A DNA stretch of 32,000 nt. Source: an uncultured bacterium (GTDB lineage: Bacteria; Auribacterota; JACPWU01). The translations under genes were made by a program, and so were the position numbers. Location of the stretch: contig CAZXEQ010000007.1 in assembly GCA_964640155.1 (NCBI GenBank), positions 30,001 through 62,000 on the forward strand, written 5' to 3'. Positions 1-21,900 of this stretch are shown here, piece after piece. Within the stretch, counting starts at the first letter, position 1, and the number at the start of each line of letters is the position of its first letter. The notes under the pieces were generated by a model that was given only the letters and a program-made list of their open reading frames with translations, was not told the DNA's origin and searched no databases.

Positions 1-960
1 GTCAGACGACTTTTGCAAGAATCGCGAGCAGGTTCAGGAGGACCGGGAGAAAGACGTTCGCCAACTCCAGAAGATTTAGGTTCCATGGAAAGAGAAGATT
101 TTATTTATCCGCCCGGTTTAGGTCCCGATCCAATTAGACCTAGAGAAAGTGATATGGGGTTAGGCGTACAACCGTTGAGTCCAGATGCACTGCAGCAAGC
201 AGACCGTATCCAGCCAGGCCGTCCAGAGGGTTCGGGTCTTGTAGAACCCATTCGAACAGAAAATATTCTTCAATATCAAGTGACACCTTTGGAGGGTCGT
301 GATGGCGACTTGACTCCAGGAGGAGCAGGTTTTCGGATGATTCAAGAAGATACAGGTTCTTTGGGGTCAGGATTAGGAGATTGGAATTTAGGAGGTGCTG
401 ATTTTCAAATGGGAGGACTGGAAGACTCAAGGAATTTGGGAACAAGTGTTTCTCTTTTAAATCTTTTAATTTCTGGTTTAGAGAGATCTCCATCACAACC
501 TGATTTTCAAATGAATCGTTTGATAGATGAAAGTCGAATGACGGTTCGAGAAGGCTTAAGAGGTCCAGATATCAGTGGAGTAGAAATTCCTGATCGTGGC
601 AGTATTGAATTGTCGGGAGATATTTTACACCTTATGGCGGGTGGCTTAATGGATAGCAGAGGATTGGGTGCAGATATGACTTTAGGAGTAGCAGGAGCAG
701 GGTTTGGTTTGGGTATTTTCAATTTTGAAAATGCGACACGTCAGACAGGATCTACGACAAGAACATCAACAATTAATTTTGTTTCTTTATTTCTTTTAGG
801 CCCTGAGCCTTTACGAGGTGAACGTGGAGGATGGGAGGATTTTCGTGGAGAACAAGAGCAAGAAGGTGCTGAAGGAACGCCTGAAGAAATACAAGAACAG
901 CCTGCCATATTCTCAAGTCGTACTGAAAGACAAGAAGGGAATCGACATATTGTTACTGAA
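1..960 (+). other. Acidic Gly/Pro/Glu-rich low-complexity segment of the giant ORF with degenerate short repeats. Probably disordered.
   Basis: The translation includes PPGLGPDPIRPRESDMGLG and SGLGDWNLGGADFQMGGLEDSRNLG, followed by QPDFQMNRLIDESRM, then GGLMDSRGLGADMTLGVAGAGFGLG, and finally RGEQEQEGAEGTPEEIQEQ. DFQM occurs twice and L-x-D-[SE]-SR occurs three times. There are no Lys and no Cys codons. Confidence 0.5.
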
Positions 961-3900
961 GATACAATGGTAACCCGTGATGGCCGGACCACACGTACGC
1001 ATACAGAAATTACAACAGAAACTACAACCGATGCACAAGGTCGTGAAAGAACTCAAACAACGGTTCATCAGGTAATTGAGACCGAAGATCGTAGAGTTTC
1101 AAGAACATTTGTAACCGGGCCTGATGGACGAGTGACCGTTGCCACAGAGAGTCGAAATCTTAGAACAGGTGAGGTGGAATCAAGTCCAGCCTCTCCATGG
1201 CCAGAAGGAACGACAGTGACAACAAGGCAAGGTGAAAATGGTCCTGAGGTTGTGGTTACATTCCCTGCACATCCAGTGACTTCTACCAATGATCCTCATG
1301 TCGGACAACAGCGACAACTTCAAATTATTTACAACTCAGATGGAACAAGAACTCAAGTAGAAAATTATCGTTCAGCTGATGGGCGTACGACAACAGTTAG
1401 AGAAGACTATGACATCAATGGACGCTTTCAGCGGACAACCACTTCGGAAGGGCTTCCAGATGGGACTCGAATCAATACGAATGAACGTGGTGAAGCAACG
1501 GTCACACGTCCAGGCGCTCCTGAGCCGGCCCCTGCAAATCGTCAAGGTGTTCGTTGGACAAGAGAGCGTACACAATTTGGTTATGATGAACGTGGTCGTG
1601 TGGTATGGCAGTCCCGAGAGACAAGAGATAATTTTTCTTCTACAGTAACCAAGGTTGTCAGTCGCATGGCGTATGATCAATATGGCCGAGAGCGCGACAG
1701 GCAATCCAGCACTTTTGTGAATGGATATGATATTTCAGGTCTTGACGGAGAAGAAATTCTTAATCCAGTTGCTGATCCCAATGATCCTACAGGCAGAAGA
1801 CTGATTTCATTTGAAGTGCGTATCAATGGACAAGTCCATCGTGTTCAAAATATTCAATATTGTGGTCAAGGTGGAAATCAGATGTGCGGATACACCGTTC
1901 GAGATGCACGGGGTGGTGTTGTGATACAAGTCGAGAAAGCTTATGACGGACCTAATGGGGCTCTCTCAAGTACTCGTATTTTACAAAATGGGCAGTGGAC
2001 TACAATTCGAATGAATTATGATCCTCAGACGATGCGGCTTGCAAATTATGAAGTAGAAAGAAATGGACGTACAACTCGCATGACGGCTCATTATGATTCC
2101 CAGACAGGTCGAGCCGATGGTTGGGATGTTGCAGTCAATGACCAACCTACGATGCAGATACGTACCACAGATGATGGACAAGGTAACACCGTAACCACCA
2201 TTCGCAATGCCCAAGGAAATGAAATAGCGAGAATTGCTGTTGCCCGTGATGGAAACAATGGAAGAATTCGCTCCTATACTATTACGCAAGGTGGACAGTC
2301 TACAGTTTATGAACCTCAATACGAAGGTAGTCGCGTTATAGGCGCTCGTATTAATGGTCAGAATGTTCCGTTAGCTGAAGCCAATTCCAGATTTGCTACT
2401 TTGTTAGGCGGTTTTGGTATTCCATTCCCAGGCTCTTTAGGAAGTTCTCAATTGATGGGGCCTGATACAGCTCTTCAAAATACAGGTTGGAATATTGATT
2501 TTGTGAACACAGTTGAAGATCGCTCTACTCATACAGAGCGAGACGCACAGGGCAGGGCTGTTCGTGAAGAATCTCGCTGGAGAACCAGTACTGCAGGACC
2601 CGGTGTTGAATTTAGAAGTGTTGAAGATAATATTGTTTATAACGGCCTAGGTCAAAAAGTAGCTTCGCGTTTGATCAATGATACGATCGGTTTTTCAATC
2701 CCAGGTGTGGGTGCTGGGCATTGGGAATCTATTCGAAGAGATGCTCGTGGTAATCTTCTCTCAGGACGTTTTATTTCAGATAGTGGGCAAGTTGTGGACC
2801 TTCAAGCTGATTTTAATGGCCAAGATAATCTGACAGGTTACTCGATGACCATTGCACGTCGAGATGGAACACAGGTAAGACTCAATGTAGATGTTGATAG
2901 TTTGGGTCGTCCTATTTCTATTGAAATGACTACGCGTGATCGTCAAGGAAATCAACTTATGCAAGCCTGGACGATTTCCTATGATGAGCGTACAGGTCAA
3001 TCCACCTACAATATGCTGCAAACTCGGCTCACTACGCGACAAGGTGTTTCTTTTGTAGCACGTTATGATGAAAGAACACAGGGTGTTTCGAGCATCGAAA
3101 TTGTTGGTGCAAATGGACAAAGCATGGGGACTCTGACACGCACGGGAACAAATCCTGATGGGAGTATGGAATTTGACGTAACACGTGGCGATATGCTTTT
3201 GGGAACCATGCGTGTGACAATGGATAGCAATGGAAATTTCACCAATTTACGAGTCACTCCTCTGGAAGTTTATCTGGTGGGTGAAGAGGCCCAACATGCT
3301 GCTAATTTTTCTGCTCTTACGTCCATAGGTGCCATTTTTATAGCCGTAGCCATGGGAGGTGCAAGTTCTCCAGGCCGCTTCATGAATAGTCTCATCAATT
3401 CGCGCAATGATCAAACGGCAGTGTCTCAAATGAGAGCGCTAGGACTGGGAATGCCTCAAATTCTCAATCAACATTCTCAAACACAACAGTATTTTGGTTA
3501 TGACGAATCAGGACGATTAAATTATAAACATACCATTACAACCAAGCAGGGCGTTTTGGGCACTTTTGAAAATTGGGAGCGAACCACTTATGATGGCCTT
3601 GGCCGAGTTCGTGAAACCATTCGTCGTAATCGTGTGAATGCGGTTGAGTTGGGCAATGGACAATGGCAAGAGGGTTCTATCCGTAGAGATGCTCAAGGAC
3701 GTATTATTGAAGGTATTGTTATGATGGGAGACAATCCGGTTCGCATTCATGGAATTATTTATGGACCGGATGGAGGAGTTTCAGGCTATCAAATAAGTTT
3801 TGTTTCTGAGGGCATGCAAGTTACAGTTACTATTGGAGCGAATGGTATTCCTACTTCGTATTCTTATATAACTCCAGATGGAACCGGTAGTACGCGTGGC

Positions 3901-6900
3901 ATTCGTTGGAGTGGAAGCCCTGCTTCTCCAGGCTCTCAAAATATTACAGATCCCACTCAGAGGCCAGATGGTTTGGATAATATGGCATGGGCCAGGGGGT
4001 CAAGATGGATTGATCAAAATGCACAAGATCGTCTGTTCAATCAAGTGATGGGCAGAATGGTGGGAGATTTAAATAATGCTGCTGCATTAAACAATGTTCA
4101 ATGGGTTCCAGGTACAGTGACACGTGATGCTCAAGGGCGTGTGACAGGTGGAGTTATGGTCGTGGATGGTGTTCCCATTGCGATTAATGGCATTCAGTAT
4201 GACGATAATGGGCGGGTGAGTTGGTACAGTTTGGCTTATTATTGTCCCGATATTTTAGGTGGTAATGTTCCAAATGGACTTGTGCGTGAGAGAAGAGTGG
4301 AAGTCATTGCAGAAGATGGAAGAAATAATCTTCTTGAGGATCGGCTCATGAGCGTTCGAGATTTTTCAGGGGCACCACGAATGCCTGCCCCCGAACGTGC
4401 TTACGGTGGTTATGTAGATGCGACGCGATTAGAAGATATTGCCATTCTTTGGAGAGATGGACAATGTCTCCTGCCCCAACTTAGATTTCAAAATACGGAC
4501 CGAACTGTCACTGAAACCAATCAATATGATGATCATTGGCGGGTGGTGGTTGTAAATCGACGAACCACAGAAGCGGGCAAGCCTCGCTTTGTTTCTAACA
4601 GTGTAGATTTTCAAGAATGGAATGGTCTTAATCAAGTGGTTCATCGTTATAATGTGACCAGAGAAACCGGAATGGTCAGTGGACGGGCGGGAACAGCAGA
4701 AAATTCTGCAACCGTTTTAATAAATGCGACTACCACAACAACCTCAGATTCCTATATTCAGTATGATGGTTTTGGACGTGAATGGCATACCTCTACGCAA
4801 AGTTGGAGTTCAGAGCGACCTGGGCTTACCTCGCAAAGTGAACGCTATGTTACGCGTTATGATGTTTATGGAAGTCCTGCAGAAGGTTTTGAGAGAAGTC
4901 GAACCTTTGGGACCATGAGAATTCAAGAAAGAGAAATGCAGGGAGTTCAAAGAGATGCGCAGAACCGTATTACGTCTGGCTATTTTGATGATACCCAAGG
5001 TCGCAGACACTATTTTAGAAATATTCAATACAATGAAAGAAATGAACCTATTGCCTGGGAAGAAGCAGTTGCTTATCAACAAATGATCTTTGGTCAAGAT
5101 GCGCAAGGTAATTCCACTCAGGAATATCGTTATCCAACTGCTGCTGAGGCAAGTTATACACGCCAACAATTAACTCCAGAAATGAGAAGAAATGGGACAG
5201 CTCTTGGTGTTTTTATTAACTGGAATGAAGAAAGCTCCGGCTCATTTCTAAATGTATATCGTTCTGATGGAACTTTGGCTGCAAGTTTCCGTTCATCCGT
5301 TTCCAATGATCCTCGCCGTCCAGCTGTGACAGTCACCAGTACTGATGTTATGACGTTTGATCGCTTTGGTCGTGCTTTGAGTGTGCGTAATTGGAAACAT
5401 GAAGAGGGAGGTCGAGACCCAAGACAGGGTGGAACTTACAATGGAATTACAACCAGGGATATTCAGTTAGATGAAAATGGCCAGGTATCTGGAATGACTG
5501 CCTGCAGTAGAAATGGACAATGTATACAAGTGCGGTTTTTGGATGGTCAGACTTATGTTGTTTTGCCCAGTGGGAGTACGGTTAATATAGGTTTGTTTGG
5601 AGATTTTGGCGGCGGGTTTGAACGTGGAACAGAGAATATAGTTCGCGCACTTCTGGGTGGGACTTCTCGCATAGGCGTTATGGATGATCGTTCCATGTAT
5701 GCTGCAATTCGTCAGTATTTGATGAACGATAGTGGATGGTTGCGCGGGGTAGATGGTGAAACTGTAGAAATGATGACACAACTTTTGGTGATGATACTCA
5801 GTAATATTCGAGATAACTCTCCACGTAATGCGCAAGGCAATCCTATTTTGTCAAATGATCGAGCTTTCTTTACTCGTATTTTAAATGAAGCTTTTCAGAG
5901 AATATTTGGGGCTTCTATCAGTGTGGCTTCTTTGGCTGAAATTGCAAATGCATTGGCGGGTTATGTTCAGAATCCTCAGTACGGCCTTACCGGTTACAAT
6001 GCCGGATACCAAAATATCTATGGAGGTAGATGGAGAGCAAATTATGGCATAAGATTTAGCGAATATCAGGTGGATGATCAGGGCAATCCTACTTCCATGA
6101 ATCTTTGCTCTACCCGGACAGGGCATTGTGTAAGGTTAGAAAATCAAGGAGGCTCGCTTCGTTTGGTAGGTAATAACGGGGCTATAAGCATGGAACATTT
6201 TAGAAGTATGATGCAGTTTATGTGGTTTGGAGCAGGTATAGGTTTCTTAGAAGATTTGTTAGGTCAACTTAGTGGAGGACGTAGAACAGCAGCAGATCGG
6301 GCCACTTTTGAAAGAGCTTTGGTTGTGCGCGATTTCCCAAGAGAAGCTATCAATGTTATGTTACAAGTTTTTGATACAAACCGTGCGGGCGGAGCAAATG
6401 CCATGCGAGAAGCTTTAGGTGCCTACTTTATGAGAACTCTTGGAATCAATTATGAAGATGCTGTCGGTATTTTACAAACTTTGTGCGGAGGTCTTGGCTC
6501 TACTATACCAACTCCAGAAATTCTTCGTTTGACAGACAACAGAGCTCTCCTTTTACGCGGTAATAATTATGTGAATAGCACCACTTATTCTGAGAGAACT
6601 TTTGTTCGTGATAGCTTTGGAAGAGAAATCGCGACATTTTCTCATACAGAAACTGAATATGGATTGGGTGACGAAAGGCGAGTGGTGGGTCGTGAAAGGC
6701 CTACAGATTCAGTAACCTTCCAGAACTATGGAATGGGAGGAGAGGTTACAGGCCGATTCACTTATAATCGTATTGTAAGTCCACCGGATGGCTGTCGCCG
6801 CTCAGATGGTCTTTGTGAGGGATTCGTTTATCTCTATAGCTCTCAGGCTCGTTCTGATATTCGCTACAATAGTAATTTTCAAGAAATTGGTCGTATAGAA

Positions 6901-9900
6901 CGTACAGAGCGTGAATATAATCCGACAGATACAGATCCAAATAAACGTCGTCCCGTGGTAGAGACTAGAAGCGTTTGGAATGTTCAATATAATGCTTTTG
7001 GTTGGGAAACTGAATATCAATATGTTCGTATCGTTTCGGGCATTCCTCTACAGTACAATCCACATCAAGCAGCTGCAGCAACTACTTCAGGAAGTACTTC
7101 TAGTAGCTATGATGTCGATAATCATCAATTACAATGTATTGGAACCCCTAACAGCGATGGTTCTTGTCGTACAGGTTCAGGAGTCGAACGGGGTAGGATG
7201 CGCATTGTTTATGATGCTCATGGCAATCAAATTGAACAGCAACATTTAGATCTTCAATTTGAATTTCCTCCTACATCCAGTGATACTGGCATTGTAGGTT
7301 GGGAGTCTATCCCAGGTCTTCCGGCTGTCGATGATATCTTCGGTCGATGGTTAGAAACCACAGAATTTGCAGATCGTTATGATTTTACGGATCGCGCTCA
7401 TCCTCGAGCTAAAACCACTCATGTTATTCATCAAAGATTCAATGATGTCGGCCGTATCACAGAGGAATGGACTTCTGAGTTGGGTAGAGATCCGGATCCA
7501 AGTCGAGTAGCACGCGATATTGTTTATGATGCTGCAGGCAGGCGTATCTTTTCTCGCACACAGTCCACATCGACGGCCAATGGTCAGCAAACCAGCACGA
7601 GCTCCATCACTCGATCTTTTTATGACTTTTATGGCCGTATGAGAAGATCTATTACTCAGTCAAATAGTTCTTCTCGTAGTACGGATGAAGATGTTGGATC
7701 AACAAGTCATTCAAATACCTATTCACAAACCCTTATCGATGCAAACGGGCATTCTCAGACTCGTACTGAATCTCAACAAACATCTCAGCAATATGATAAT
7801 CGGGATTTGGGCGATCATTTATTAGAAATGATTTCTGATTATCGCTTCTGGCTGAGAATTGCTTCGGCAGTTGCAGGAACAATTATTGGCTGCCCGATTT
7901 GTTTTTCACTGCTTATTGAAGCTGCGATCTTGGTAGTTGAGGGAGCTCGTGGAAATCTCAAAGGTCGTGAAGGTTGGGCTGTTTTGATGGCCTTTGCAAA
8001 TGTTGCATTATCGGCTGCGGGGAGTGCGATTGGAGGCAGTAATTTGCTTGCAGGAGGTTTTGCGTTTCAAGCCACTGCAAATGCGGGCAGAATTGCAGCT
8101 CAAACAGCCATTAGTCTTGCAACGAATACAGCTGAGCAACTCATTGGAGGTATCGTCAGAATTTACGTTGATAAATTAGTAAACAATATTATTTGCGGTA
8201 ATGAAAGCGGACAGGGTTGCGGCAAGGAAGCAGGTCGAGCTTTTCTAAGTGGTTTGATCAATGCAGTCATTATGGCTCCCGTGAGTGCTTTGGGAAGCGC
8301 GGCCAGTGGAGGTAATTTTGGAAATGCTCTTTTAAGATCAGGTGTTTCAAAAGCAATTGGTGTGTTCACAAAAACTATGTCGGTGATAACAAAGCCCTAT
8401 GAAGATAAAGATTTTGAAGGAATGTTAGAAGACAGTGGTTCTAATAAGGGTGAATGCAAACAGGGCGCTACCTTTGATCAATGCCGTTCGATGAAGGAAG
8501 GTAATGATGCGCATGACTTAATGTGGAATGCGATTGGAACAGTTGCTAATTCTCTGCTGGATCGCTTTGTGTTCAACCCCATGCAACAGGCTCAAGCAAG
8601 GCAAGATTATGCAGATCGATACATTCGTCAAAGGATGGATTTGGCGATGGAAATGAAAATGAGAGATTTTGATACATGGAAACAGCTCAATAGCATTCAA
8701 AGAGAGCCTGATCAGGACCGTCGTATCAATCAATTGCAGGCTTTCTTAAGAGACGAAGCAGTTGGACGCTTTGATCTTTCTAGAAATCAGGCACGGGATC
8801 TTCCTTCTTTAACAAGATTTCGTGCACAGTTAAGAGATTTAGCCACTGCATTCAATAATTTATTAAATCAATTTAATAATACAGATAGCGTTGTTGAACG
8901 TAATCGTATTTTAGGCAATATGGGTGTTATCTCTGGCGTAATGGAAGCGTTTGTTCATATGGGGCAAAATTATTTAGATTCAGATGGAAATATTGCTGCT
9001 GAATATGCACGTGATCCTGCCTTTAGAAATGCTATTTCCGCAGTTCAAGTGGCTTTAGATAGAGTGGTGGATGCGATTCGTAGAGGTGATTGGGGTGAAG
9101 CGTCTTTCAGATTGACGTATGAAGTAAGGGGACTTATCAATACGGTTGAATCCTTGCGTGTTTTAAGACGAGAAACAAATGAAGGCTTAAGGACGTTGAC
9201 CCAACAATATCAAACAATGTTACAAAATCATCCTGAAATGAGAGCTCAAATGGCAGAGTTTGGTCAACTTCTCGACGCCATCAATGATTGCATGAGTAAA
9301 GAAGGAAATATGGACATTGATCGTGCGGTCGCCTTAATGGGAGTGGCTCGTCAGGCATTTGGTGGTTTTTCAGATTTGGCTGACGCAGGGCGTCTGTTAA
9401 GAGGTTTAGAATCAGCTTCACCTGAAGGTCAGACGGCTGCCAGCAGCCGACGAGCAGATTTAAATGCAGCGGTGAGCTTGCTTCAAGGAAGACTGGATGC
9501 CATCATGGATTTGGTTCCTGAAATTCGTGAGGGACGAGTGGATCAGTCAAGATTTGCGGCTCTTTCAAGAGAAATTCTTCAAGCTAGAGCGGTTATTACT
9601 GCAGTTCAGGGATTATCTCAAATTACTGAAGCCAGACGTACCTTGGATGCAACTGCTTCTGCGATTGGAAGTCCTACTACTGCCAATGCCGATGCAACTC
9701 GTCGTTTGGAATTGGCCCGTCAGGCTTTGGATCAAGCCGAAAATCGATATGAAGCTGTATTAAGAGAAATAAGAATAAACCGAGAAGGTCAGCGTGATCT
9801 AACACATATTGATTTGGCTAGAGCTGAAAATAACATCACAGACGCCAGAACATTTACAGGCATTGGAGAAGCTTTAGGAGCTTATGCAGACTTTAGTCGC

Positions 9901-12900
9901 AATCAAGAAAGGTCTGCGGCTTTACAACAACTTAGCCAGACAGAACATCATAATTATCCACTGGCTTTAAGTCGTATTGAGGATGCTTTTGGTTTACTGA
10001 TGAGAGGAACTCCGGCTGGGCGTGCAGAAGCTCAAGCTCGATTGTCTCAAGCAGGAGCAGCTTTAGCTCAGTCACAGGATCCAGGTCCTGCCAGTGGAGA
10101 GCTAACAAGACGTAGTTTAAGAACTTTGGGAGAATCATTAAATACAGTTGAATCAGGAAATCCATTATTTCAATCTCGACATCAAGTGAGAGATTCTATT
10201 GCTCAAATGCAAGCTGCGGGTTTAAGAACACAATTGTTCGAATCTTCAAGAACAGATAATCGTGTTGCGTTGACACAAACGATTCTTAGGCTTTATGGAG
10301 ATCCCGGAGCTCAATTCCCATTAAATCAACCTTGGGAAAGAGTGGCTCAAATAGCATTAGGGAATGGGCCTTTCTATAATGGCGGATTGGCTGAAGCGAT
10401 TCGTGCTAACACAGGTGTAATGCAAGGAGCTCATCCGGCTTTAAGTGAGTATACAGCTTTTATTGATCAGACTGTAGATCGCATGATGAATACTCAAGAC
10501 CATAATGTTTTGAATGACAGTGGACGAGCCCTCTCCTTAGCAAAATCAGCCATGCATGTTGCGATGAGAAATCTTGCAGCCCCTCAGTGGGAATCCAGTA
10601 ATCGTTATGTTCAAGCCAGGAGCGAATGGTCACGCGACGTGATGGCGCATATTGGTCGCTATGTGGATGCGATGGGCCGGGCAGGAAATCCGTCTGTCGA
10701 AGATTTCATGCAATCAAGGCAAGAAGGTCCTCAAGGCTATCAAGATGTAGAGCGAGCAGGCTCAGCCCAGAGAGAATCGGAAGGAAGATATATTGGTACA
10801 GCAACTCGTGCTCAGGAAATTTATGGCCTTTTGGCTGCTCAACCAGAATTAGAGCGTTCTATTCGAGTGACCATGCGTTGGGTCGATCAGGAAGGCACTG
10901 CTAATCCTTTCCGAATGGTGATGCCAGGAATGCCTTCCTCTCCCGTTTATTTGCCGCAAGAGCAGCCTGGAGAATCAAGACTTGATGTGCATATTGAAGT
11001 GATTGATCCTCTGTTGGTGGGGACCAATCCTGAGACCCAAAGAGATCCTTTGACACAAACAGAATATCAAGTGAATCGTACAACAGGTCAAAGATATCTT
11101 GCTTCATTCTCGGATGGTCAAGTTGTGATTAGAAATATGACTGAAAGAAATGAAACTCAAGAGACTGGAAGGACCATAGTTCGTGGTCCTGAAGGTAGAA
11201 TTGCTCAGGTCACAAATTTTTCAACATCGATGAGAATCGAAAATTCATCGAGCCAGACAGCTCAAAATGTATCAACAGTTACAATCACTTATCCAGAAGG
11301 TGCACCTGTTCATTCTCCTCAAACAGTGACACGGACAACCAATGCCGATCGCTCTATGACGATGACATTATCCGATGGCAATAGAACGGTACAAATTCCT
11401 GCGCCTAGAGGCAATTATAATTATGCCCCTATGAATTTAACAACAGAGGGAGTCAGCATTCAGGAAAGTGGAAGACAAAATCCGACATTTCTTTATGATG
11501 CAGAAACGGGTGGGTCGGCGGTTGTTTCAAGATATGATGATCGTGGGGTTCCACAACAAATTTCGTTTACAAATAGGGATGGTAGCTCAAGAGATATTCG
11601 TGTTACTTCCAGTGAATCAACAGGCTTTGGTTTTGAAGAAAGAGATAGCCAAGGCAATGTTCTTCAAACTAGATCTTATTCAGATACCAGAGGCCGGGCT
11701 TTGGATTTAAGACTCACAGCCAATGGATTTACACTTCAGTCTCGCGATTCTCGAATGCCTATTGGTGGATTCGATGCAGCGACTGCTTCATTCCTAGAAT
11801 ATGACTGGACAGGACGTCGCTTAAGTGGTGTTCAAAGAATTCAGGAGCATTTACAAGCTGATGGTACCAGGGTGCGAGATCTTACCAATACGCAATTTAC
11901 CTATCGAGACAATGACTCCAGTGTTGAAGTCAGAAGCTTAAGAGGACGTCGGGTGGCTGCTGACGGAACGATTAGCTATAGCCAAATCATGCCTGTTCAA
12001 ACCATTTCTAGTATGGGAGAAGCTAATGCCCGAGTGATGCCTGGAGGCGGAGTAGAACTGACAGACGCCAGTGGTGTAATTTACAGAGATGGAATGACCC
12101 GAGATCCTAGCACAGGTCAGGAAACCTCTTACAATCAGGCTGTTTATCGGGACTTCCGTATTTATAACGCAGCAAGTGTTGTTACGCTTACTCCAGAACT
12201 TCAAAGAGATGCTGCAGGTTTTGCCAGACGCGATGCCCAAGGTAAAGTCATGGGAGTTGAAGGTCATGACACGATTCATGCTGTGACTTATGACGCAGGA
12301 CTCATTACCTCTATTGATCATCGTCCGCTTGCTGAAGCTAATCAAGCTTGGGGAATGCGCGTTGCATTTGATGGCGACAGAGCTAATTTCACATTTACTG
12401 GTGCAGCTGCTCGTGGCATGCTTGCAACTCATGGTACAAGTTTGAATGGTGTGACTCGCGCTAATGCTCGAATCGTCGAACGAGGTGATGGCGGTTTTGC
12501 TGTCCAACGTCGTGATGGGGAAAGTTATACTGATGTGTTGATTGAACGCATTAATACAGAGCCAGGAGAACATCAAGGCGAGCATACGAGAGATACTGTA
12601 GAACCTGGGCATCCCACGATGGATTTTGATCCTGAGGGACGTCCGATCAATTGTGTGCGCACTACTTTTGACAAAGTGACTATTTATCGAGGCATACAAT
12701 GGGTTCCTGCTGGACCTCAAGGTTATAACATTCGAACAGGGTATATTCTGGAAACACAAGCCAATGGGCACACCATTGAAACAGTCTATGAGAGAGTTCG
12801 TTATAATGATCGTGGGCAGCCTGTTGCGAGAACGATTTATCGTACCGAAAATGGTGTTAGGACTGATCAAAGTGAGGAAATTGCTAGAAATCACAGAGAA

Positions 12901-15900
12901 ACAGTTGAGAGGATGACCAAAAATATCGAAGATATCGGTAGTTGGTACCAAGCTCATCGTGGACTTATTCCGGCTCAGAGATCTGCTGAAATTGACGCCT
13001 TACTTGCCATGCCCATTGATGGAGAACATGGCTTAGTGAATATTGATATTCAAAGTTTTACGGAAGAAGTTCGGGGAGTTGACAAGACGGGTGAAGATTT
13101 ACATGGCCGATACATGACTCCAGAGGTTTTAGGTCTTATTGATCGTACAGCTCAAGCTTTAAGAGACACTCCTTCTCTCTCAGGAATTCCGCAAGCACGA
13201 AGAGCTGAATTTGAAACAGCCCTGAATGCGAATCGTGCAGATATTTTAGGAAATTTAGCTGAAGTTCTTACCATTATTCGAGAACATCGAGACTTACCTG
13301 TCCAAGCGCTGGAGCCTACGCGTGTTGCTTTAAATAGAGAAGAGACGTTTAGACAAGTGGCAAACCGCTATGGCCAGGTTCAGTCCATGCGTGACGAGGC
13401 AAGTAGCTATGCTACTTATCAAACATCATCCATTCCTGATGCAACAATTCGTGGAGAAGTTCAGGCTGCTATTAATACCATTGGTAGAAATTTAAAATTT
13501 GCTGCAGATCGATATGGAGATGAACTCAATCGTGCATTGGAAGATCTTCTTAGTGGCGATTTTTCTCGAACTGAGCAATATCTTGGAAATCCAGAACAAA
13601 GACGTCGTGGTTCGCTAGATGTCTTAAAGGGTGAGTACGATTTGGCCGCAGATCATTTGTTGAGAAATGCCGGTAGAGCGGCCGAACTTTATCGCGCTTT
13701 GAACGCAACATCAACTGCTCGAACCACCGTTCAATGGAATGGCCGGCCGGTTACACGAGAAAGAGCTGGCAATATTTTAGCAGCTTTTAGAAGTGGAATA
13801 GGCTTAATGGCTCAAGGGTCTGATTCTTTAAGGCAATCAGATGACACAGTGCGTCATGCGGGTGTGGCTATTTTAGAAAGAGGAAATACAGGTGTCAGAT
13901 TCTTAGAATTAGGCGACCAATATATTCATACAAATGTTGCTACACAAGATCGAGGGCTTTATGAACGAGCCATGGGTCTTTTTGATCAAGGTTTGGCTTC
14001 TTATAATAGTTCTGTGGGTCGTTCTACTCCTTATGATTCAAGCATTATACAAAGAGTTTATCGGCTTTTGGGTGATGGACAGGGAATTACCGGTTTCCTT
14101 TCTTCAGCACGTACTTTATCCGATCTTTCAACAAGCCGTCGTGAACGTGTTTCAGCCCAAGATTTTGAACGTCTGGCTAGTGGTTTACATACAGCACATG
14201 ATACAGGTGCAGCTATTACCTCAGAAAATTATCAGGGGCTTTTGAGAACAGGACAAGATCTTGCAAATCGTGTTCGCGCCCAATATCAATTAGCTTTTGC
14301 AGCTTTGGGTGAACATGGATTAACTCGAGAAGTTACTGCTGTTTTTGATATTGCCGAAGGGATGGGAGAATTTACAGGTCGTATTGCAAGTCTTGCGGAA
14401 GGGATTCAGCATTTGACTCGTTTCTACAGCCCAGCCGCGTCCGATCAGTTTTCTGTTGTAATACGAGCGTCTGAAGTAACTCAAGATTTAAATGCGACTA
14501 CTGTACGAATGGCTGGATTTATCCGAGAAGGATTGGCTCAGACAACTTATCTGAGTACACGCTTCTTAGCTCAACCTGGAGCGATTGACGTTAAAGCTCT
14601 TCGAGAGGATCGACGTTATCAAGCCCTTGAGGGAGCTGTTCATAATGTTTCCGTAGGTCAGAGAATTTTAGAAAATGAAGCAAGGTTTAGCCAAGCGCCT
14701 CCAAGAGGTCTTGATCGCGGAATATCCATCGAAAGTGTGTTTTCTCAAGATTCTGCTCAAAGACTTGAAAATGCTCTTTCAAGAGTTCGTGCAACACCTG
14801 AGGAAATAGCCAGCTATCGATCTGTTTATAATGAAACGTTAAGATTTCATCGAGAATCTTTGCAGGCCTATGCTCGAGGGGATGTCAATAAAGCAGACAG
14901 TCTTTCTCAAGCGGCTGGAAAAGGATTCTCTATTCTTGAAGAGTTGACGGGTCTGGTTCGTGAGACTTTGACTGAACGAGGCAGTATCATTGCTGGAGAA
15001 TATGTTTCAACAGAACCCAGGGGAGCGCAAGGGGTTTCTGTACGGACTTATTGTTCTACAGCTCCGTTGGCTTTGGCCAAGGTGAGATATTTGAATGTTG
15101 CTGTCGCTTCGTTTATGGCTAGAAATTATGATCGCATTGAAGATTTTACGGCTGCTTTTAGAGAGGCTTATCGGGAAGGTCGTGAAATATTGAGGGCCGA
15201 ATTTATACGTGCAGGTCGCGTTGAGCTTAATATTATGCGTACGACCGATCGCGAAGGAACTGTCACCTGGCAGATTCAATCAGGCCGACAGGGAATTCAA
15301 CGTTATCTGGATCGAGGTGGAGAAGGTCTAAGAATTTTAGCTCGCGGTCTGACGCGGGAAGCAGTTGGACAATTCCAAGGTGTGGTGGTTCATTATTTTA
15401 ATAATATCGATCAAGCCCGCAGGGATTTAAGAACCACAGAACAGACGCATACTTCCGTTGAAAACTTAAGAAATCTAGGACCGCGACTTACGACTGAAGA
15501 AACAGCACTGAATCAAGGGAAAGCTAATATTGTTGATTCAAGATTAACTCATGAGAGAGTTCTGAATCGTCGTGCTTTGGCTTTATTGAATGATGGACGT
15601 TTTAACGAATCAGATAGAACTTTAAGAATTTTGAGCACTTATCAACATATTACTGCGACATTCATGAATGCAACAGCTAGACGATCAACTACAGGTGGAG
15701 TAGAACTTATCTACAGTGGAAGTAATAATTTAAAAGATCTCAATGGTCATAAATTACCTCCAGACCAAGCGATTGTTTTAGCTAGGGAAAATGCAGATCA
15801 TACCATTGTTTATGCTCCTGAAGCTCGTACACAGTTAGCTCAGATGCAAACAACTTATTTAGCTCAACACTATACTTTGAATGATCTTTATCATTCATCA

Positions 15901-18900
15901 GCTTTTGCAGTTTTAACCTATGTAGTAGCGATGGCCAATTTAGAAGACGCTGTTGTTCGGGGAGATGATGTAGCAGCTCAAGAGGCCTCAGCTCAAGCTG
16001 ATGCTTGTGCCAATCCTTCTGATGAATCGGGGCTTATTGCGTCTGCAATGGCGCGTGAAGGTTTGGGAGAACTCAATAAGGGGACCAATGCGGTTCTTTT
16101 TGATGTAGACGGGGGTCCCCATAATATCGCAGGCGTTCTTCAAGATTTGGATCAAAGATTTGAAAGAGGCATTCAGCTTTTTGTGGATAGACAATACGAC
16201 AGAGCTTCTTCTGAGTTCAGGGAAATCGGACAGAATTATCAAACTTTGACAGCTTATGTAAATAACTTTGGTCAATTGGATGAAACAGGATTCAGAGAAG
16301 GTCAAGGCAATATGCAGTCCATACGCAGGTTGTTAGCGACCTTGAATATCACGGTTCCAACGGGACCTCTTCAAATCACACCAGAGCTTATCACTCAGGT
16401 TCTTCGTGCTTGGGAATCCAATCCTGCTCATGAAAGCAATCTTGTTCTTAAAGCAGGCTTAGTTCGCTTCACAATGCTTGTTCATATTCGACAAGGAATG
16501 GCCCATTTACAAACAGCTCGTGAAGCCATGATGCGTGGAGATTGGATTTCGGCTAGACACTCGACCACAAGGGCTACGCTTTCTCGGGAAAATGTGCAGG
16601 AAAGAGAACGTACGCTGCGAAATGACACTCTTCAAAGAGAGTTTTATGAAGGTTGGGATGAGCAAGTTGGAGGAAACACTGTTCATCATAAAGGCTTTAA
16701 TGAAATACGAGATGAGATTGCTCGTGAGCAGTCCACCTCGTCTACAACACTTTCTGAAAGAGAAGCCTTAGGCGAGAGATTAGGACTAGGACAAGGGGCG
16801 GTGATTAGAAGTGGAACGTTGGCGAATTTGCGTAGCAATGCAGCTGCAAGAAATGCGGCAGTGGAAACCTTGTCCGTTCGGGCAGGAGTCATTGGACTCT
16901 TAAATTCAGAATTAGGAGCACGAGGTCGTATCTTAAATTCGCTGAATACTCTTCTTTCTCGGGATCATCTCACAACGGCTCAAATGGATAGAGCTGATCG
17001 TATGTTGGGAGTCGTTTCAGTTTCAAGGGATAGGGCTAATTCTATTGATCAAGCTTATAGCGAGGGGCGCATACGACTTGATCGTACTCATACCGATGAG
17101 GAAGGGCATGTTGAACGTAACTATACAGACAGGACAGCTCGTGGACGCCTTGTAATCGATCTGCGTGATCCCAGTGGGCAGTCGGTTCAAATTGAATTGG
17201 CTCAAGTTCGTTTCGGGGTTTCTCAGAGGGAAGGTGTGAATCAATGGGTTAATTTTGGGGTCAATCCTTCAGGGGTTGGAACAGGTGATGTCACAGCGAT
17301 AGGAAATGCAATGGCCCCATTTGCCTTTAATGCTCAGATGGATCAGCTTGGAAGCTCGGCCTATCTTTTCCTTCAAAGAGAATTAAATTTTACTCAGGTT
17401 TTCCAACAAGGGGAACAACATGGATGGGAAACAGTTCCTCTTCAGTCCTTTGATAAGCTTAACGCTTATAACAATGCCTTTAATGCTGTTTCAGCCAGAG
17501 ATCAGGTGACTTTTGCTGCAACGACAGGACATCCAATAGCGGTAGGAGCGATTACGACGGCTGTCGCAGAAGTGACGAGTTCACAAGCCTATCAAAATGC
17601 GGCTTCTCTTGCGCGACAGGGAGCCATGTTCATTATGTTGGGTAATTTTAAAGCAGCTTCAAATATTTATCAGGAAGTAGCTTCTCAATATCAGGAGATG
17701 GGGACGTATGAAGTTCAGCGAAGCGCAAATATTCAAAGACAAGATGCTTTGAAAGCGGAAGTCATTAATAATCCTCATGGGAAGACAGCAGAGGCGCTTC
17801 GTTCATTAGGTTTATTGGATGCGAACGGGCGTATTCAGTTTGGCTCCAACGGAAGTCCAGCCGCATTGAATCAATCTTTATCCCGTTTTTTACTTGTTCC
17901 AGATCTTGCCAATACAGCAAATGCAAACACGCTTTTGGGTGATGTTATTTCTCCTAGCACTGCAGGTCTGATTCGTACAAGTCTGACGCAACAAGGCCGC
18001 TTTTCTGAAAGTAATCTTCGAGATGCCCAAAATATGTTGGCAAGTTTGATCTTAACTCAGCGTTCTAATACGGAATTGACTCAGGCTTTAACTGCGATGA
18101 ATAGTGGAGATCATACGGCGGCAACAAAGCATATGGAGCATGCTCAAGTTCTTACCCAAGCTTCATCACATATAGCTGCATTAGTGGGTATCCCAACTGG
18201 TAGTTATCGAATGGGTTCTACAGGGCCTCTTCGAACGGCAACTCAGGTGGTTACAGCTGTTGTGGCAAAGGTACGTGAACTGATAAGCACAGACAGTGCC
18301 ACTCGAAGGGCTGAGATCAATGTAGAACTGGGTGCGATGCAAGCGGTCATTACAGCGAGGCAGACGGTAGATCAGGGGTTAGCAGATGCGCAGCGCACGC
18401 CCACCAGTGCAATTATTCAAGAGGCGACGCAAGGAGATCGCGAAGCTTTGATGAATTCTTTAGGGCTACAAGGAGAACAAAGAACAAATTTTGAACATTT
18501 GATTGAAAGATATATCGCTAATGAAGAAAGTGGGAAAGAGGCTACAGCGGTAGGTGATAGACGCCGAGAGTTAGAACATCAACGTTCTCAAATTGTGGAT
18601 CAAATTTCTCAAACAATAAGTCAAGCTTTGACAAGAATGAACATTAATAATGTGTCTGATTTGGAGCGCCATACTGCAGGACGACCTAATCATATGACAA
18701 TGCTGAGAAGTTTTGTACAGATTACAGAACTTCAAAGAAAAGTTGAGCGCGGAGAAACTTTGACTCAGGCAGATATCACGACCTTAAGAAATGCCGTGCA
18801 AAATTCGGCAAATGCAGGAACATCGCCAAGGGCTTTTTATGAGAGGTTTACAGATGGTGTCCAACATGGGTTTGGATCTGCTAGGCAAAGTCTTGTCAGT

Positions 18901-21900
18901 TCATGGAATAATCTTATCGCAGGTAACATTACCAGTGCTTTCAGAGATTTAGGTGTGACTTATGGAAGATATTTAAAAGCTGCGTTTTTGGATACATTCG
19001 TGGGTTATTTTCGACATGTTATTTTAGGTGGTGTCACAGAAGGCATTGGTTATGGAGCCCGTATGGTTTGGGGGCTTGGAAAATGGGCTGTGGCTTCTGC
19101 AACCGCTAATCGTCCGGATAATTTTGATTATTGGGTTTATGTTGAAGAAGGTAGAGACACGCGCGAAGTACAATCTACTGTTCTGGATACCTCAGGCTTA
19201 CGTGCTGCAGAAAAAATTTCTCGTTCGGGTCAAGGAGATACAGTGGGTATTGGAGGTCAAACCCTCGAAGAATTCATGAATAGCTCTCAAAGTTTAATGG
19301 ATAATATTCAAAGTCAGCAGGGCCAAATTGAAACTCTTCGTCGTCAGCCTATGACAGAAGCTAATCAGCAAGCCCTCACTTCAGCTTATATGGACCTTCG
19401 TATGACTGTCGGAAAATTTACTGATGGGCATTTAAGCTATCAGATTCATTCTGCGTTGGTCGATGCTCATTACGATAAAGTAGATGCTCAGAACCGCATT
19501 CGACATGAAGAATATCTAAATAATGGTAATGACACACGTTCTCTTCAGAATTTGGCTAATATGGCTCAAGAGGTTCAAGAGAATGGTCAAACAGCTTTAA
19601 ATACTCTTGCAGTAACGCGACAAGAAACTTCACGTGCCATGAATCTTCAGGAGATGGACAGTGCATTTTCAAGAGGTGAAGGTAGAGTGGGAGAATTTAT
19701 CGCCAATGCTCAAAGAGTGCATGGGCTTAATAATCTCATCACTCAGGCTTATGATATGACGAAAAGCCATGGCGGATTTATGGACCTTTATCTTGAATTT
19801 CAAGATGCTTGCACGGGATTTGATGCGCACAATGGAGCAGTTGCTTTACGTAGGTTGAGCACGCAGGCCGAAGGTATGCTTTCTACTTATCAAAGAACGC
19901 AAATCGTCAATCAAACTGCTTTTGAAGGCCTTTCATCAAGCATGCAGGATCGAGTGACTCAACTGAATGCAGCTATCAAGTCAGGTGAAACAAGATTTGC
20001 CATTGTGCAATTTGTTGTCATTGATGTTGGATTAACTTTAGTGACAGCAGGAGGAGGTTTGGGTATACGTGCGGCAATTAAGGTAGCTTCCGAAGCTGCA
20101 ATGGAATCTGTAGCAAGAAGACTAGCAACACAAGGTGTTGAAGTTATATTGAAGGATGGAGCTAGGATAGCAGCCAGAGATCTTGTGAAGGAAGTAGCCC
20201 AAATTGGTTTAGGAGATGTTATTCGGTCAGTAGCATGGCGTGAAGCAGTGAGAGCAGTAGGTACTTATGCGGGCCAATACGTGTTGGCTTTTGGGCGAAG
20301 CCTTTTTACCCATTATTTTGCTAAAGAAGGTGCTGTTCGACAAGGTTTGGAAAGATTAGGGAAAACGGTAGGCAGAGAGGCTGTTCCCCAAGGTGCAAGC
20401 CGTTTACAAAAAGTTTTGAGTCATTGGGGTGAGCAGCTTCAGCGTATCAATCCACTTCGCGGGGCAGGTGCTGGTTTTGAACGTTCAGGAGTGATTGAAT
20501 TATTGGGCTCCATGCGACATGGTGCTCACACGTTTGCGATGTTGGAATTCATTGGCCCCATTTTAAATCCGATTATGAATCATACTTTGAATCCTGTTCT
20601 CAATCTTGTTGTTGATTTAATGAATCGTGCTGGAATTCAAGTGGGTCATATGCATGAAGCTCCTTCTGTAAGTTTTGGACAGTTGATAACGCTCAGAGGC
20701 TTGGAAGCTCATTTAGGACGTGTGGCAGATGCCTATATGAGTGGTTTGAAAATGGGTCCTCTCTTTTCTTTTCAAATACCCGGCCATATTTTTGCCGTGG
20801 GAAGTGTAGGTTTTAGATTAGCGGCAGGGGGTTTTTATGGAGCACTTGAGCCGATGATGCGGCGCGTTGGAGCGCAGGCTTTGGGCAAATCTGTTTCTCA
20901 GGCGGTAAGAGGTGTTCTCTGGCCAGCAATTCGTAGAGAGGTTGAAGGAGGGGCAACAAAAATTCTTTGGGGTAGAGTCGCTCAACGTGCAGCTCTTTCG
21001 GTGATTACAGGTCCTCTTGCTATGAGTGGTTTTATGGCTCAACAGGTAAATGGTCTTCTGATGTTCAAGGTCGCGGAGGTGGGTGTTGAATTTTCAGTTC
21101 GAACATTCTTAGCGCTTTCAAATACAATTGGAGGAACGCAGTTCACAAGCGAACAGATAGAGCACATGGTCGCAACAGCGAAAGAATATTCTTTCCTATT
21201 GGTTCCAACGATGACCCGTCATATGGAATCTGGATTGGCAGCCATGCGATTTGCAGATACGATGCTAGAAGGTGTTCGTGGTCAGGATGGGTCTGTTCAA
21301 GTCCAATCGATGACTGAAAGAATTGCGAATAGAGTAAATGAAATGACGGGTGTTCTTACTGCTCATGTTACAAAGATGCATGAGGCTACAAATAGTGATC
21401 AGTTTAATGCTGCGAGTGAGGCTTTACGTGCGGAATTGGAAAAACAAGGTATTGAAGCACCTGCAGAGCTTCAACAAGCTGAAAATGCTTGGAGAGAAGC
21501 CCAAGCAAATTCAGTTGCTCCAAAAGAAGGTGAATCTCTTCCTGCTCCTAATCGAGAAGCAGCTAGAGCACCTAATCTCGATGCTTATAAAGAGCGCGTT
21601 TCTTCCTTGAATGAGCCTTTAAGAAGAGCCGTTGAAGAGGGAGGAACAAAAGATTTACGCTTGATTCAACATATTTTAGAAGGTAGAACGGGTGCTGCTG
21701 AGCAGATTTTAAATGATCTCTTATTATCTAGACCCGGTGATGCTATTTCTGCACTGCAAGGTGTGGCAAAACTTTTTGAAGCTGCACGTACTCACATGGA
21801 AGAATCTGGGATTCACATGAGTGCGGAAGCCTTTGTTCAAAGTGTAGATCCTGGAGGTAGCGTAAGACATTTAGTGGAAATAGCCGCTCGAGAAGGTTTG

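Follow-up and report, generated by a model that had tools for sequence, protein, structure and literature searches.

The question raised by this locus is why a giant bacterial protein should use almost no lysine over some 10,000 residues and then regain a normal lysine content in its C-terminal part. The DNA considered here, hereafter the window, is a stretch of 32,000 nucleotides from an uncultured bacterium. Positions 1–31998 of its forward strand are read as a single open frame of 10,666 amino acids with zero stops, lying wholly inside the ORF of a giant gene (C7:15802-69177) that encodes 17,792 residues. The host genome has 2.4 Mb and 38% GC, and its proteome, assembled from long ORFs and not from gene-caller output, contains 7.3% Lys and 4.6% Arg.

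An initial annotation, made by reading the letters, had counted ten Lys in the first 2,660 codons of the window, and this count is exact (codons 551, 646, 886, 1176, 1182, 1527, 1799, 2315, 2471, and 2654). The first Lys is the AAG at nucleotides 1651–1653, leaving codons 1–550 without Lys, and the motif KKARKPKK does lie at 28561–28584. Arg, described as one of the commonest residues in codons 1–2660, accounts for 9.85% of them and ranks second after Gly. Lys remains sparse up to about 20 kb, at about one per 90 codons, and is abundant in the 3′ part, with 44–49 per 500 codons beyond 28.5 kb. For 2,660 residues, a count of no more than ten Lys has a probability of 1e-71 against the genome background (K 7.3%), and still 1e-30 when the 5th-percentile protein is taken as the background; compared with its own genome, the start of the window is far from typical in its Lys and Arg usage.

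Two elements of that first description need revision. The start of the window is not a boundary, as the Lys-poor zone begins 4,315 residues upstream of it, at protein residue 419, and extends to residue 10,551 (K 0.6%, R 8.8%); within this body Lys is purged and Arg doubled. Of the Lys-free runs, the longest (1,503 aa) is upstream of the window, and the others include runs of 597, 566, 515, 489, and 417 aa, with codons 1–550 being part of the 597-aa run. The Lys gradient that had been proposed along the protein is real as a rise toward the C-terminus, not as a steady slope: change-point analysis finds breaks at protein residues 10,551, 12,374, and 14,251, and K increases stepwise from 0.60% to 2.30%, 4.26%, and 9.07% (Table 1). 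The Lys at codon 2654 and the 12 Lys of codons 2501–3000 are due to the Lys island listed in the table. When the rare Lys were considered as processing sites, the 61 contexts compared had no common motif.

Table 1. Features of the window, in nucleotide positions, with the corresponding protein residues where given
Feature	Position	Strand	Basis or details
Beta-rich YD/Rhs-like part of the Lys-poor body	1..7881	+	protein residues 4734-7360
Zone of close Cys pairs, 3-10 residues apart	1861..8484	+	shuffling test
Three Gly/Ala-rich hydrophobic helices interrupting the desert	7882..8295	+	protein residues 7361-7379, 7393-7411, 7480-7498
Island of 12 Lys, in and just after the hydrophobic cluster	7960..8682	+	protein residues 7387-7627
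More helical part of the Lys-poor body	8683..17454	+	to protein residue 10,551; K ~1%, R ~9.6%
First intermediate tier	17455..22923	+	protein residues 10,552-12,374; K 2.3%, R 7.7%; change-point analysis
TM-like helix	19996..20052	+	protein residues 11,399-11,417; hydropathy
Second intermediate tier	22924..28554	+	protein residues 12,375-14,251; K 4.3%, R 7.4%; change-point analysis
Start of the Lys-rich C-terminal part	28555..31998	+	K 9.1%; opens with KKARKPKK; continues past the window to residue 17,792
Divergent SecA-like motor	29077..31557	+	Pfam
SecA_DEAD (PF07517)	29077-29520	+	Pfam, E 5e-21
SecA_PP_bind (PF01043)	30685-30945	+	Pfam, E 1e-5
P-loop_SecA (PF21090)	31198-31557	+	Pfam, E 2e-4

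A first explanation would be nucleotide bias, a foreign origin of the gene, or an influence of the habitat, for example alkaline pH, on every exposed protein. The gene has indeed a higher GC content than the genome (42.6% vs 38%), and some relatives in the phylum come from alkaline lakes (PMC12057145). However, the GC3 of the giant (0.282) is that of the genome (0.291), the extra GC is confined to codon position 2, and both the base use at four-fold sites and the choice of Arg codons are the same as in the genome (AGA, 31% vs 30%), therefore the selection acts on amino acids, as the initial annotation had judged. Its accompanying remark that the two ends are alike in nucleotide composition is correct for GC3, flat at 0.24–0.34, and not for total GC, which falls slightly from 45% to 40%; this drop is a result of the amino-acid change and not its cause. 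Moreover, Lys-rich and Lys-poor parts coexist in one ORF, and the 158 proteins with a signal peptide have the same composition as the cytoplasmic ones (K 7.15%, R 4.4%). Nucleotide bias is refuted, and the probability left to this group of causes is very low. Any 300-aa segment with four or fewer Lys occurs in only 29 of 882 ORFs, and the Arg-rich ones among them are giants or orphans.

Other general causes were considered and rejected. Avoidance of A-rich codons or of slippery A-runs is ruled out, given that Asn, also encoded by A-rich codons, is enriched in the Lys-poor body, that AGA usage is normal, and that another giant of this genome, of 16,172 aa, is Lys-normal. A joint depletion of the nucleophiles Lys, Cys, and His does not hold, as Cys is low in all the giants regardless of Lys and His is inconsistent. 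Amino acids differ in biosynthetic cost, and cheap residues are enriched in the body, yet so is Arg, a costly one, which speaks against economy. As for an easier export through Sec, the opposite swap is predicted, because Arg is the disfavoured residue in the early mature domains of E. coli proteins (PMC5468347).

The reading of the 5′ part as a YD protein, also due to the initial annotation, is supported by motifs, by an AF2 model, and by Foldseek, which all point to hairpins of the YD/Rhs type. The whole beta-rich segment comprises protein residues 419–7360 (K 0.45%, R 8.2%). For window positions 1288–3300, AF2 run on the single sequence predicted a beta-hairpin meander with blocks at pLDDT 70–83, and every top Foldseek match of this model is an Rhs, teneurin, or Tc BC protein (E 1e-12 to 1e-7, with 1e-12 against 8qjd, 7q97, and 6fb3); since the TM-scores are low, 0.1–0.2, these matches do not demonstrate a closed cocoon. 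Further on, at window positions 7780–9900, the model consists of long helices (pLDDT 70–84 at model residues 345–665), for which the fold search returned generic helical repeats only and no specific PDB match. The likeness to Rhs/YD proteins, namely T6SS Rhs effectors, the BC component of Tc toxins, and teneurins, is in the local type of beta-hairpin repeat and in the presence of YDxxGR-like motifs. The giant differs from them in that its array spans about 7,000 residues, in that Pfam RHS_repeat (PF05593) has no match in it, nor any genome-wide at 1e-6, and in that the DPxGL core end is missing: the motif PxxxxDPxGL is absent, and no DPxG[LWIVFM] occurs anywhere in the protein. No Pfam family at all is matched at E ≤0.01 in protein residues 1–14,000.

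This fold invites a passive explanation, in which networks of Arg-Tyr and Arg-Asp contacts in YD/Rhs hairpins favour Arg and the poverty in Lys simply follows. It agrees with the Arg included in YD-type motifs (YDxxGR) and with a fold search that leads to Rhs and teneurin proteins. Against it, only 23 strict YD motifs occur over some 9,000 aa, and canonical RHS sequences are not poor in Lys: 12 such stretches from related genomes have K between 2.1 and 9.6% (5.5% when pooled), those of the low-GC relatives reach 4–9.6%, and the Lys content of the giant is ten-fold below that of the canonical Rhs proteins of related genomes. In addition, the helical part of the giant and the body of another giant that carries TolC-type domains are equally Lys-poor.

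More direct evidence comes from the residues that have changed during evolution. Homologues of the Lys-poor body were found neither in 40 relatives nor, at near length, in a word-index search of 5.8 billion proteins; an exhaustive HMMER search with window codons 1–1200 against 1.84 billion representatives gave one weak 50-aa match only, and among look-alikes in the ESM Atlas nothing was usable. The word-index search for longer proteins, whose range ends at 5,000 aa, gave nothing with the SecA module. Because no orthologue of the giant's own Lys-poor body was detected, the substitution test rests on two sister proteins, two other large proteins of the genome with Lys-poor bodies, compared with the same-genus genome G001. 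Their heads are 56–71% identical and their Lys-poor bodies 34–43%, and the bodies remain Lys-poor. Where Arg was replaced, Lys took its place at 9 of 128 sites in the bodies (7%) and at 16 of 41 in the heads (39%; Fisher P=4e-6). The replacement of Arg by Lys is suppressed in the bodies, five-fold at changing sites, which is a further point against the passive structural explanation; the latter is now very unlikely and largely refuted. These heads open with a signal-like helix, hence their sidedness is ambiguous.

The phenomenon is not restricted to one protein, as at least seven other large proteins of this genome have Lys-poor, Arg-rich bodies unrelated in sequence to the giant. BLAST of the giant against itself and 21 other giants revealed no more than two short duplications inside it and connected none of the Lys-poor bodies with one another, and the N-terminal leader domain common to the other giants is absent from the 17,792-aa protein. 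Of the 12 large switch points in Lys content, four have a hydrophobic helix at a distance of 30 aa or less, where 0.58 would be expected (P=0.002); no such helix is found at the giant's N-terminal switch (residue 418), nor at five other switch points. In the giant C1:3, a UDPGP nucleotidyltransferase domain occupies the Lys-rich head, directly before the helix at the switch point, and in C1:14609 TolC-type OEP domains are placed within the Lys-poor body. Whether homologous giants have the same polarity had been posed as a check, and a protein of 19,512 aa from another family of the phylum (genome G006) does have it; the C-terminal ~6,000 aa of this protein are collinear with the present giant. 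Its first 11,513 aa (K 2.5%, R 6.6%) are unalignable with the present giant, and the collinearity of weak matches in the Lys-poor part had no enrichment above shared composition. K jumps from 2.5% to 7.3% at a switch located 29 aa past a helix centred at residue 11,484, which matches in position the helix 11,399–11,417 of the present protein, and the genes flanking this second giant have K 7.1%.

The initial annotation further proposed that the 5′ and 3′ parts work in different compartments, and this is very probably so, given the helix at a conserved position between them, the Cys pairs on the Lys-poor side, and the ATPase on the Lys-rich side. The topology was derived from a hydropathy heuristic (Kyte-Doolittle) and not from a trained predictor. 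Apart from the cluster at residues 7361–7498, hydropathy peaks are few outside those at residues 11,399–11,417 and 12,618–12,636, the latter being a weak hydrophobic segment in the second tier (window 23653–23709), and a further helix is placed at residues 16–34; a TM helix at the junction at protein residue 14,252 is ruled out by a hydropathy of 0.3. The 36 Cys form 12 close pairs; 0.72 would be expected, and 5,000 shuffles never gave more than five. The pairs are confined to the Lys-poor part, 11 of the 12 being in protein residues 381–7600 (examples are 5354/5362, 6568/6574, 6769/6776, 6998/7005, 7112/7122, 7364/7367, 7465/7473, and 7552/7561), and they are probably short disulfide loops. 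As judged from the predicted domains, NTP-dependent functions appear in Lys-rich parts, and TolC-type domains and paired cysteines in Lys-poor parts. These independent markers together suggest a membrane-anchored giant whose Lys-poor stretch forms the body outside the cytoplasm, probably on the cell surface. Two features fit this layout less simply. If the three-helix cluster, which has Kyte-Doolittle 19-residue means of 2.49, 1.68, and 1.75 and low AF2 confidence, crosses the membrane, residues 7499–11,398 would be cytoplasmic yet Lys-poor; and after the helix at 11,399 Lys stays at 3–4% for about 2,800 residues, whereas the G006 giant jumps at once.

The 3′ part had been described as a motor, and Pfam matches identify it as one of the SecA type (Table 1), with no SecA scaffold/wing family reported by Pfam in the giant. 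The C-terminal ~3,500 residues hold this SecA-like ATPase, TPR, and helix-hairpin-helix, and the SecA-like module is common to giants of 5,000–19,500 aa in eight other genomes of the phylum. The architecture resembles that of the SecA giants reported by West-Roberts et al. 2023 (bioRxiv 10.1101/2023.11.21.568195) in the very long N-terminal part predicted outside the cell, in the TM helices near the C-terminal third (the two peaks given above, by the heuristic), and in the combination of a divergent SecA DEAD with a preprotein-binding module devoid of scaffold/wing, in a sequence that is mostly unannotatable. Those giants belong to Omnitrophota and other phyla, while the present one is from a different phylum and, unlike their "Dockerin-type" and "Archaeovorin" classes, has no dockerin/cohesin, carbohydrate-active, glycosidase, or peptidase domains detected by Pfam. 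Lys/Arg composition was not analysed in that work or in a 2026 Omnitrophota preprint.

Long Lys-free stretches are known as lysine deserts (Szulc et al. 2023, PMC10665810; review PMC13696103), and the present protein shares with them these stretches, the conservation of the state, and the compensation by Arg. Its runs of up to 1,503 aa far exceed the absolute definition of at least 150 Lys-free residues, the longest one covers 8% of the protein (1,503/17,792) where the relative definition asks for at least 50% in one region, and the depletion goes beyond nucleotide composition in a genome with K 7.3%. Described deserts are mostly eukaryotic proteins of the ubiquitin system, small toxin chains, or proteins of high-GC Actinobacteria, with GC as a confounder, whereas this one involves about 10,000 residues of a probably extracytoplasmic part, in a genome of 38% GC where no tagging system is seen.

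The initial annotation had likened the depletion to toxin chains that escape ubiquitin-dependent degradation, and evasion of ubiquitin- or Pup-type tagging would apply if the body entered the cytosol of another cell or dodged pupylation in its own. The signature is akin to that of ricin A, cholera toxin A1, and pertussis S1 (PMC13696103), and, as in the ERAD-evading A chains of AB toxins, parts working in different compartments differ sharply in their use of Lys and Arg, beyond GC. On most other counts the analogy is not supported: Pfam finds no enzymatic domain in the Lys-poor zone, and the 14,000 aa yielded neither a toxin domain nor an enzymatic one; the zone consists of ~10,000 residues of structural repeats, a scale about 50 times larger; no Pup ligase occurs in the genome, which is 97% complete; the close Cys pairs, and the TolC-type domains of a sister giant, indicate the envelope; and no link to a eukaryotic host, or entry into its cytosol, is seen. 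We regard this explanation as highly improbable.

The reading that we favour, and consider fairly likely, is that an exposed extracytoplasmic body is selected against lysine, while a cytoplasmic C-terminus is Lys-normal. The exposed body would be made of degenerate beta-hairpin arrays of the YD/Rhs type followed by helical bundles, and the Lys-normal C-terminal ~3,500 residues would be cytoplasmic. Purifying selection would strip Lys from the former and Arg would take the positive-charge positions, as the remaining sequence evolves very fast; at least seven further large proteins, unrelated in sequence, would follow the same rule in their exposed bodies. The epsilon-amino group of lysine may be a liability for such a huge exposed chain, as a target of Lys-directed proteolysis or covalent cross-linking, and a 2-MDa molecule would be lost to a single hit at any position. 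Avoidance of proteases or chemistry directed at Lys outside the cell had already been suggested for this locus, and it appears to be the best cause at hand.

Two more specific versions of this cause can be formulated, both of them doubtful. One is resistance to foreign Lys-specific endopeptidases of the habitat; as one cut ruins a 2-MDa chain, the selection per site would be far above that on small exported proteins, which are in fact unaffected. The purging of Lys alone, with Arg doubled, would guard against enzymes of the Lys-C type and not of the trypsin type, and the bodies evolve fast, like many surface molecules in conflict. However, nothing points directly to such proteases in the habitat, enzymes of the trypsin kind, which cut after Arg too, are no less common, and the rare Lys retained have no shared sequence context. 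The other, also improbable, is that the surface cohort avoids Lys so as to be spared by a weapon that the cell itself displays against other cells, either a cross-linker of the transglutaminase kind or a protease specific for Lys. The only Transglut_core match of the genome (26 bits, above the Pfam cut-off) sits inside the Lys-poor body of the giant C1:80311, the purge spans a cohort and not one family, and Lys should be nearly eliminated, as it is, where every free epsilon-amine can serve as a substrate. Conversely, this match covers the C-terminal half of the Pfam model only, most bacterial members of the transglutaminase superfamily either are proteases or have no known activity, Gln, as the other substrate of transglutaminases, is enriched and not depleted, and no protease of the Trypsin_2 family was detected in the genome.

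Giant bacterial proteins are nearly unannotatable, as exemplified by the ~14,000 residues that here match no family, and a rule telling exposed and cytoplasmic parts apart by composition would provide a first map of them. The Lys-purge rule holds even where the sequence has turned over completely, and the selection against a single amino acid that maintains it can be measured. The idea of the lysine desert, so far tied to ubiquitin or Pup tagging and confounded by GC in bacteria, is extended to a low-GC and probably extracytoplasmic setting; as neither tagging nor GC applies, a different Lys-directed hazard at the surface is indicated. It is conceivable, if rather unlikely, that near-absent Lys with Arg compensation is a signature, readable from sequence alone, of the outermost, conflict-exposed proteome in lineages that construct giant machines on their surface, because their cells deploy or face a Lys-directed weapon, be it a transglutaminase-type cross-linker or a lysyl protease. 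If this were true, the poverty in Lys would be a form of self-immunity, and the K/(K+R) profile would read the topology of giants that are otherwise unannotatable.

The window is a single open frame throughout, and its codon 1 is residue 4734 of a 17,792-residue ORF (C7:15802-69177), hereafter the giant. The genome that encodes it (G000; 2.44 Mb, 14 contigs, GC 38%) contains over ten ORFs longer than 4,000 aa. In a Pfam search, no family matched residues 1 to ~14,000 of the giant, and its C-terminal part returned a divergent SecA motor (SecA_DEAD 5e-21, PP_bind, P-loop), followed near the C-terminus by a TPR stretch, as well as an HHH_3 domain, listed in the table below.

The initial annotation had counted only 10 Lys codons among window codons 1-2660, and translation returns exactly this number; likewise, the first 550 codons are without Lys, the first AAG is at 1651, Arg is common over codons 1-2660 (9.85%), and KKARKPKK is at 28561-28584. 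Given the genome background (Lys 7.3%, Arg 4.6%), the binomial probability of 10 or fewer Lys in these codons is 1e-71. The Lys share, K/(K+R), has a median of 0.63 and a minimum of 0.18 in a crude background proteome, made up of 1,268 long ORFs (200-3,000 aa) collected with no gene caller; at 0.04, the flagged stretch is atypical of its own genome, lying below that minimum. The depletion thus stands, but the window start is not its boundary, as the zone begins upstream at residue 419: residues 1-418 have normal Lys (7.7%), residues 419-10,551 hold 0.60% Lys and 8.75% Arg, and Lys then climbs stepwise to 2.3%, 4.3%, and 9.1%, with change-points at residues 10,551, 12,374, and 14,251. Upstream of the window, 1,503 consecutive residues are free of Lys, the longest such run in the giant.

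That GC bias is not the source, as first proposed, agrees with GC3 (0.282 in the Lys-poor part, 0.291 in the genome ORFs), four-fold-site base use, and the relative use of the six Arg codons, all matching the genome; only GC2 differs (0.477 versus 0.361). Total GC declines slightly along the window because the amino-acid content changes, GC3 and synonymous use being those of the genome. Avoidance of A-rich codons as such is ruled out, given the enrichment of Asn and the ordinary frequency of AGA.

The giant is not the only purged protein of G000, even if just 29 of 882 ORFs include a 300-aa window with at most 4 Lys. Seven further large proteins, here the cohort (table), have bodies with 0.8-1.7% Lys and 7.6-10.4% Arg, adjoining parts with 5.9-9.8% Lys and 3.4-5.7% Arg; one, C7:7521, is encoded immediately upstream of the giant, and a Lys switch of the same kind occurs in C6:66069. 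BLAST detected no similarity between the giant's Lys-poor body and the cohort bodies, nearly all of which lack Pfam matches. Signal-peptide proteins (n=158, simple heuristic) resemble cytoplasmic ones in Lys (7.15%) and Arg (4.4%), which excludes both a general adaptation of exported proteins and a habitat effect such as alkalinity. A simple fold habit is excluded because twelve canonical RHS-repeat stretches from related genomes hold 5.5% Lys when pooled. A surface protein longer than 2,315 aa that is transcribed divergently (L003:3-6947:-; G000 C7:3-6947), with TIG/IPT, beta-helix, and GDSL-lipase domains, is poor in both residues (21 Lys and 42 Arg in 2,030 aa) and represents a second way of being Lys-poor, uncompensated by Arg, among the likely surface proteins of G000. 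Most G000 giants start with a Lys-rich N-terminal leader domain of ~480 aa (motifs LLQDIHC and TGGFHTQ; no Pfam match), present in at least 15 copies, generally near the N-terminus behind a hydrophobic helix where checked in G000, and absent from the 17,792-residue giant. Across the phylum, 20 of 79 genomes contain it, with roughly 2-21 matches each, in open frames up to 24,620 aa.

Coordinates of features in the giant and in related G000 proteins
Feature	Coordinates	Giant residues	Remarks
Cohort proteins	C1:14609, C8:69768, C1:3, C1:80311, C7:7521, C1:229450, C6:116531		seven proteins
Leader domain	L008:3583-5553:- (G000 C1:233032-235002)		
Leader domain, further copies	C1:12414-14324, C7:7662-9131, C1:41240-42670, C2:263410-264867, C7:105266-106651		
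Three Gly/Ala-rich hydrophobic helices	window 7882-8295		glycine-zipper-like; between beta-rich and helical parts; hydropathy
Duplicated 55-aa segments	window 3637-3801 and 4075-4239	5946-6000 and 6092-6146	
Second duplicated pair		12,712-12,776 and 12,801-12,859	
HHH_3 helix-hairpin-helix	L002:5243-5407	~17,148-17,202	ComEA-like; E 4e-10; 3' of SecA-like motor, near C-terminus

The studied giant is absent from the fragmented assembly of a same-genus genome, G001, and substitutions were compared in the two cohort proteins with orthologues there. Identity is 56-71% in their Lys-rich heads and 34-43% in the Lys-poor bodies, where G001 retains 0-5 Lys per 200 aa despite the divergence; replaced Arg became Lys in 16 of 41 cases in heads versus 9 of 128 in bodies (Fisher P=4e-6). 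Given the low identity, the persisting scarcity of Lys, and the suppressed Arg-to-Lys replacement, the bodies change rapidly while Lys specifically is kept out.

Five markers agree in placing the Lys-poor parts outside the cytoplasm. In the studied giant, the Lys-rich part carries the ATP-driven SecA-like motor; in the C1:3 giant, the Lys-rich head includes a UDPGP nucleotidyltransferase domain, directly before a strong hydrophobic helix at the switch point; in the C1:14609 giant, TolC-type OEP domains lie within the Lys-poor body; 12 close Cys pairs, 11 of them within residues 381-7,600, occur in the studied giant against 0.7 expected (maximum 5 in 5,000 shuffles), as expected of short disulfide loops where the compartment is oxidising; and a hydrophobic helix lies no more than 30 aa from 4 of 12 large cohort switch points (0.58 expected, P=0.002). 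These sequence features support an extracytoplasmic location short of proof, because a helix is missing at several switches, among them residue 418 of the giant, the giant's topology could be altered by the three-helix cluster, and sister-protein heads open with a signal-like helix. The giant's cysteines are almost exclusively pairs 3-10 residues apart over residues 398-7561 (in the window, 1861-8484) and singletons past residue 7,561; such pairing is familiar from proteins passing a narrow outer-membrane channel. In the paralogues C1:229450-235092 and C6:66069-68840, a Lys-rich head gives way to a Lys-poor tail at an internal signal-like segment, resembling a signal peptide in one (…AMA/QP) and a lipobox in the other (…VTGC), which suggests internal export or lipidation signals.

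The Lys-poor body has a beta-rich part (residues ~500-7,300, with sparse YDxxGR-like motifs) and a helical one (~7,600-11,000). Single-sequence AF2 models window 1288-3300 as regular hairpin meanders (blocks at pLDDT 70-83, overall mean 56), and all Foldseek matches are Rhs, teneurin, and Tc-toxin shells (E down to 2.5e-12); as TM-scores are low, the model supports a repeat type of this kind and not a cocoon. Window 7780-9900 is modelled as long helices (pLDDT 70-84), for which the PDB offers no specific match. Directly after or within the three-helix cluster is an island of 12 Lys, the two spanning window 7882-8682; here the desert is interrupted by the helices and the loop behind them, which bears Lys and a Cys pair, and cluster and loop could form a membrane-inserting module. 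BLAST against itself shows that the giant is not repetitive overall, the sole clear internal duplication of the Lys-poor body being two segments 42% identical (table). No relatives of this body were detected with window codons 1-2,000 in 40 related genomes, with codons 1-2,660 in a near-length index, or with codons 1-1,200 when 1.84 billion representatives were searched exhaustively.

From eight further genomes of the phylum, the SecA-like module retrieved giants of 5,000-19,500 aa, most of them Lys-normal over their full length. The sole relative of the same architecture, 19,512 aa (contig C42 of G006, a genome of another family; loci L039-L042), is collinear with the studied giant at five points across the C-terminal 6,000 aa, offset by only 77-79 residues at position ~11,500, and resists alignment over its N-terminal 11,513 aa. 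These hold 2.5% Lys and 6.6% Arg, and Lys jumps to 7.3% 29 aa past the helix equivalent to residues 11,399-11,417, from which we conclude that the polarity asked about in the initial annotation recurs; flanking genes have 7.1% Lys. This relative has a comparable cluster of six helices (residues 5,658-5,992), one cysteine, at residue 2, and only 0.5% His.

The cause of the purge we can only infer, whichever reading is taken. Toxin-like evasion of tagging systems, raised initially, is unlikely: G000, rated 97% complete, has no Pup ligase, no toxin domain was found in the giant, and the Lys-poor bodies are probably located in the cell envelope. Ease of export is rejected, as it predicts the opposite swap; Arg is disfavoured in E. 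coli early mature domains (PMC5468347). Self-immunity to cross-linking is kept alive by the only transglutaminase-like domain of G000 being in a Lys-poor body (C1:80311), although that domain is matched in part. A purge of Lys alone would also agree with resistance to lysyl proteases, a speculative reading. G000 has no Trypsin_2 (HtrA/DegP-type) match, which 12 of 14 control genomes have. A single damage event would ruin a 2-MDa chain, so that giants would be purged and small exported proteins spared.

Lysine deserts and compartment-specific Lys/Arg bias have been described in proteins of the eukaryotic ubiquitin system, in AB toxins, and in Actinobacteria (PMC10665810; PMC13696103), GC content being a confounder in the last. 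SecA-bearing giant proteins were described for Omnitrophota (West-Roberts et al. 2023, bioRxiv 10.1101/2023.11.21.568195), and neither that report nor a 2026 Omnitrophota preprint includes a Lys/Arg analysis. Compared with the known deserts, what is new here is the low-GC genome, the probable extracytoplasmic setting, the scale of ten thousand residues, the cohort of proteins, and the measured substitution bias.
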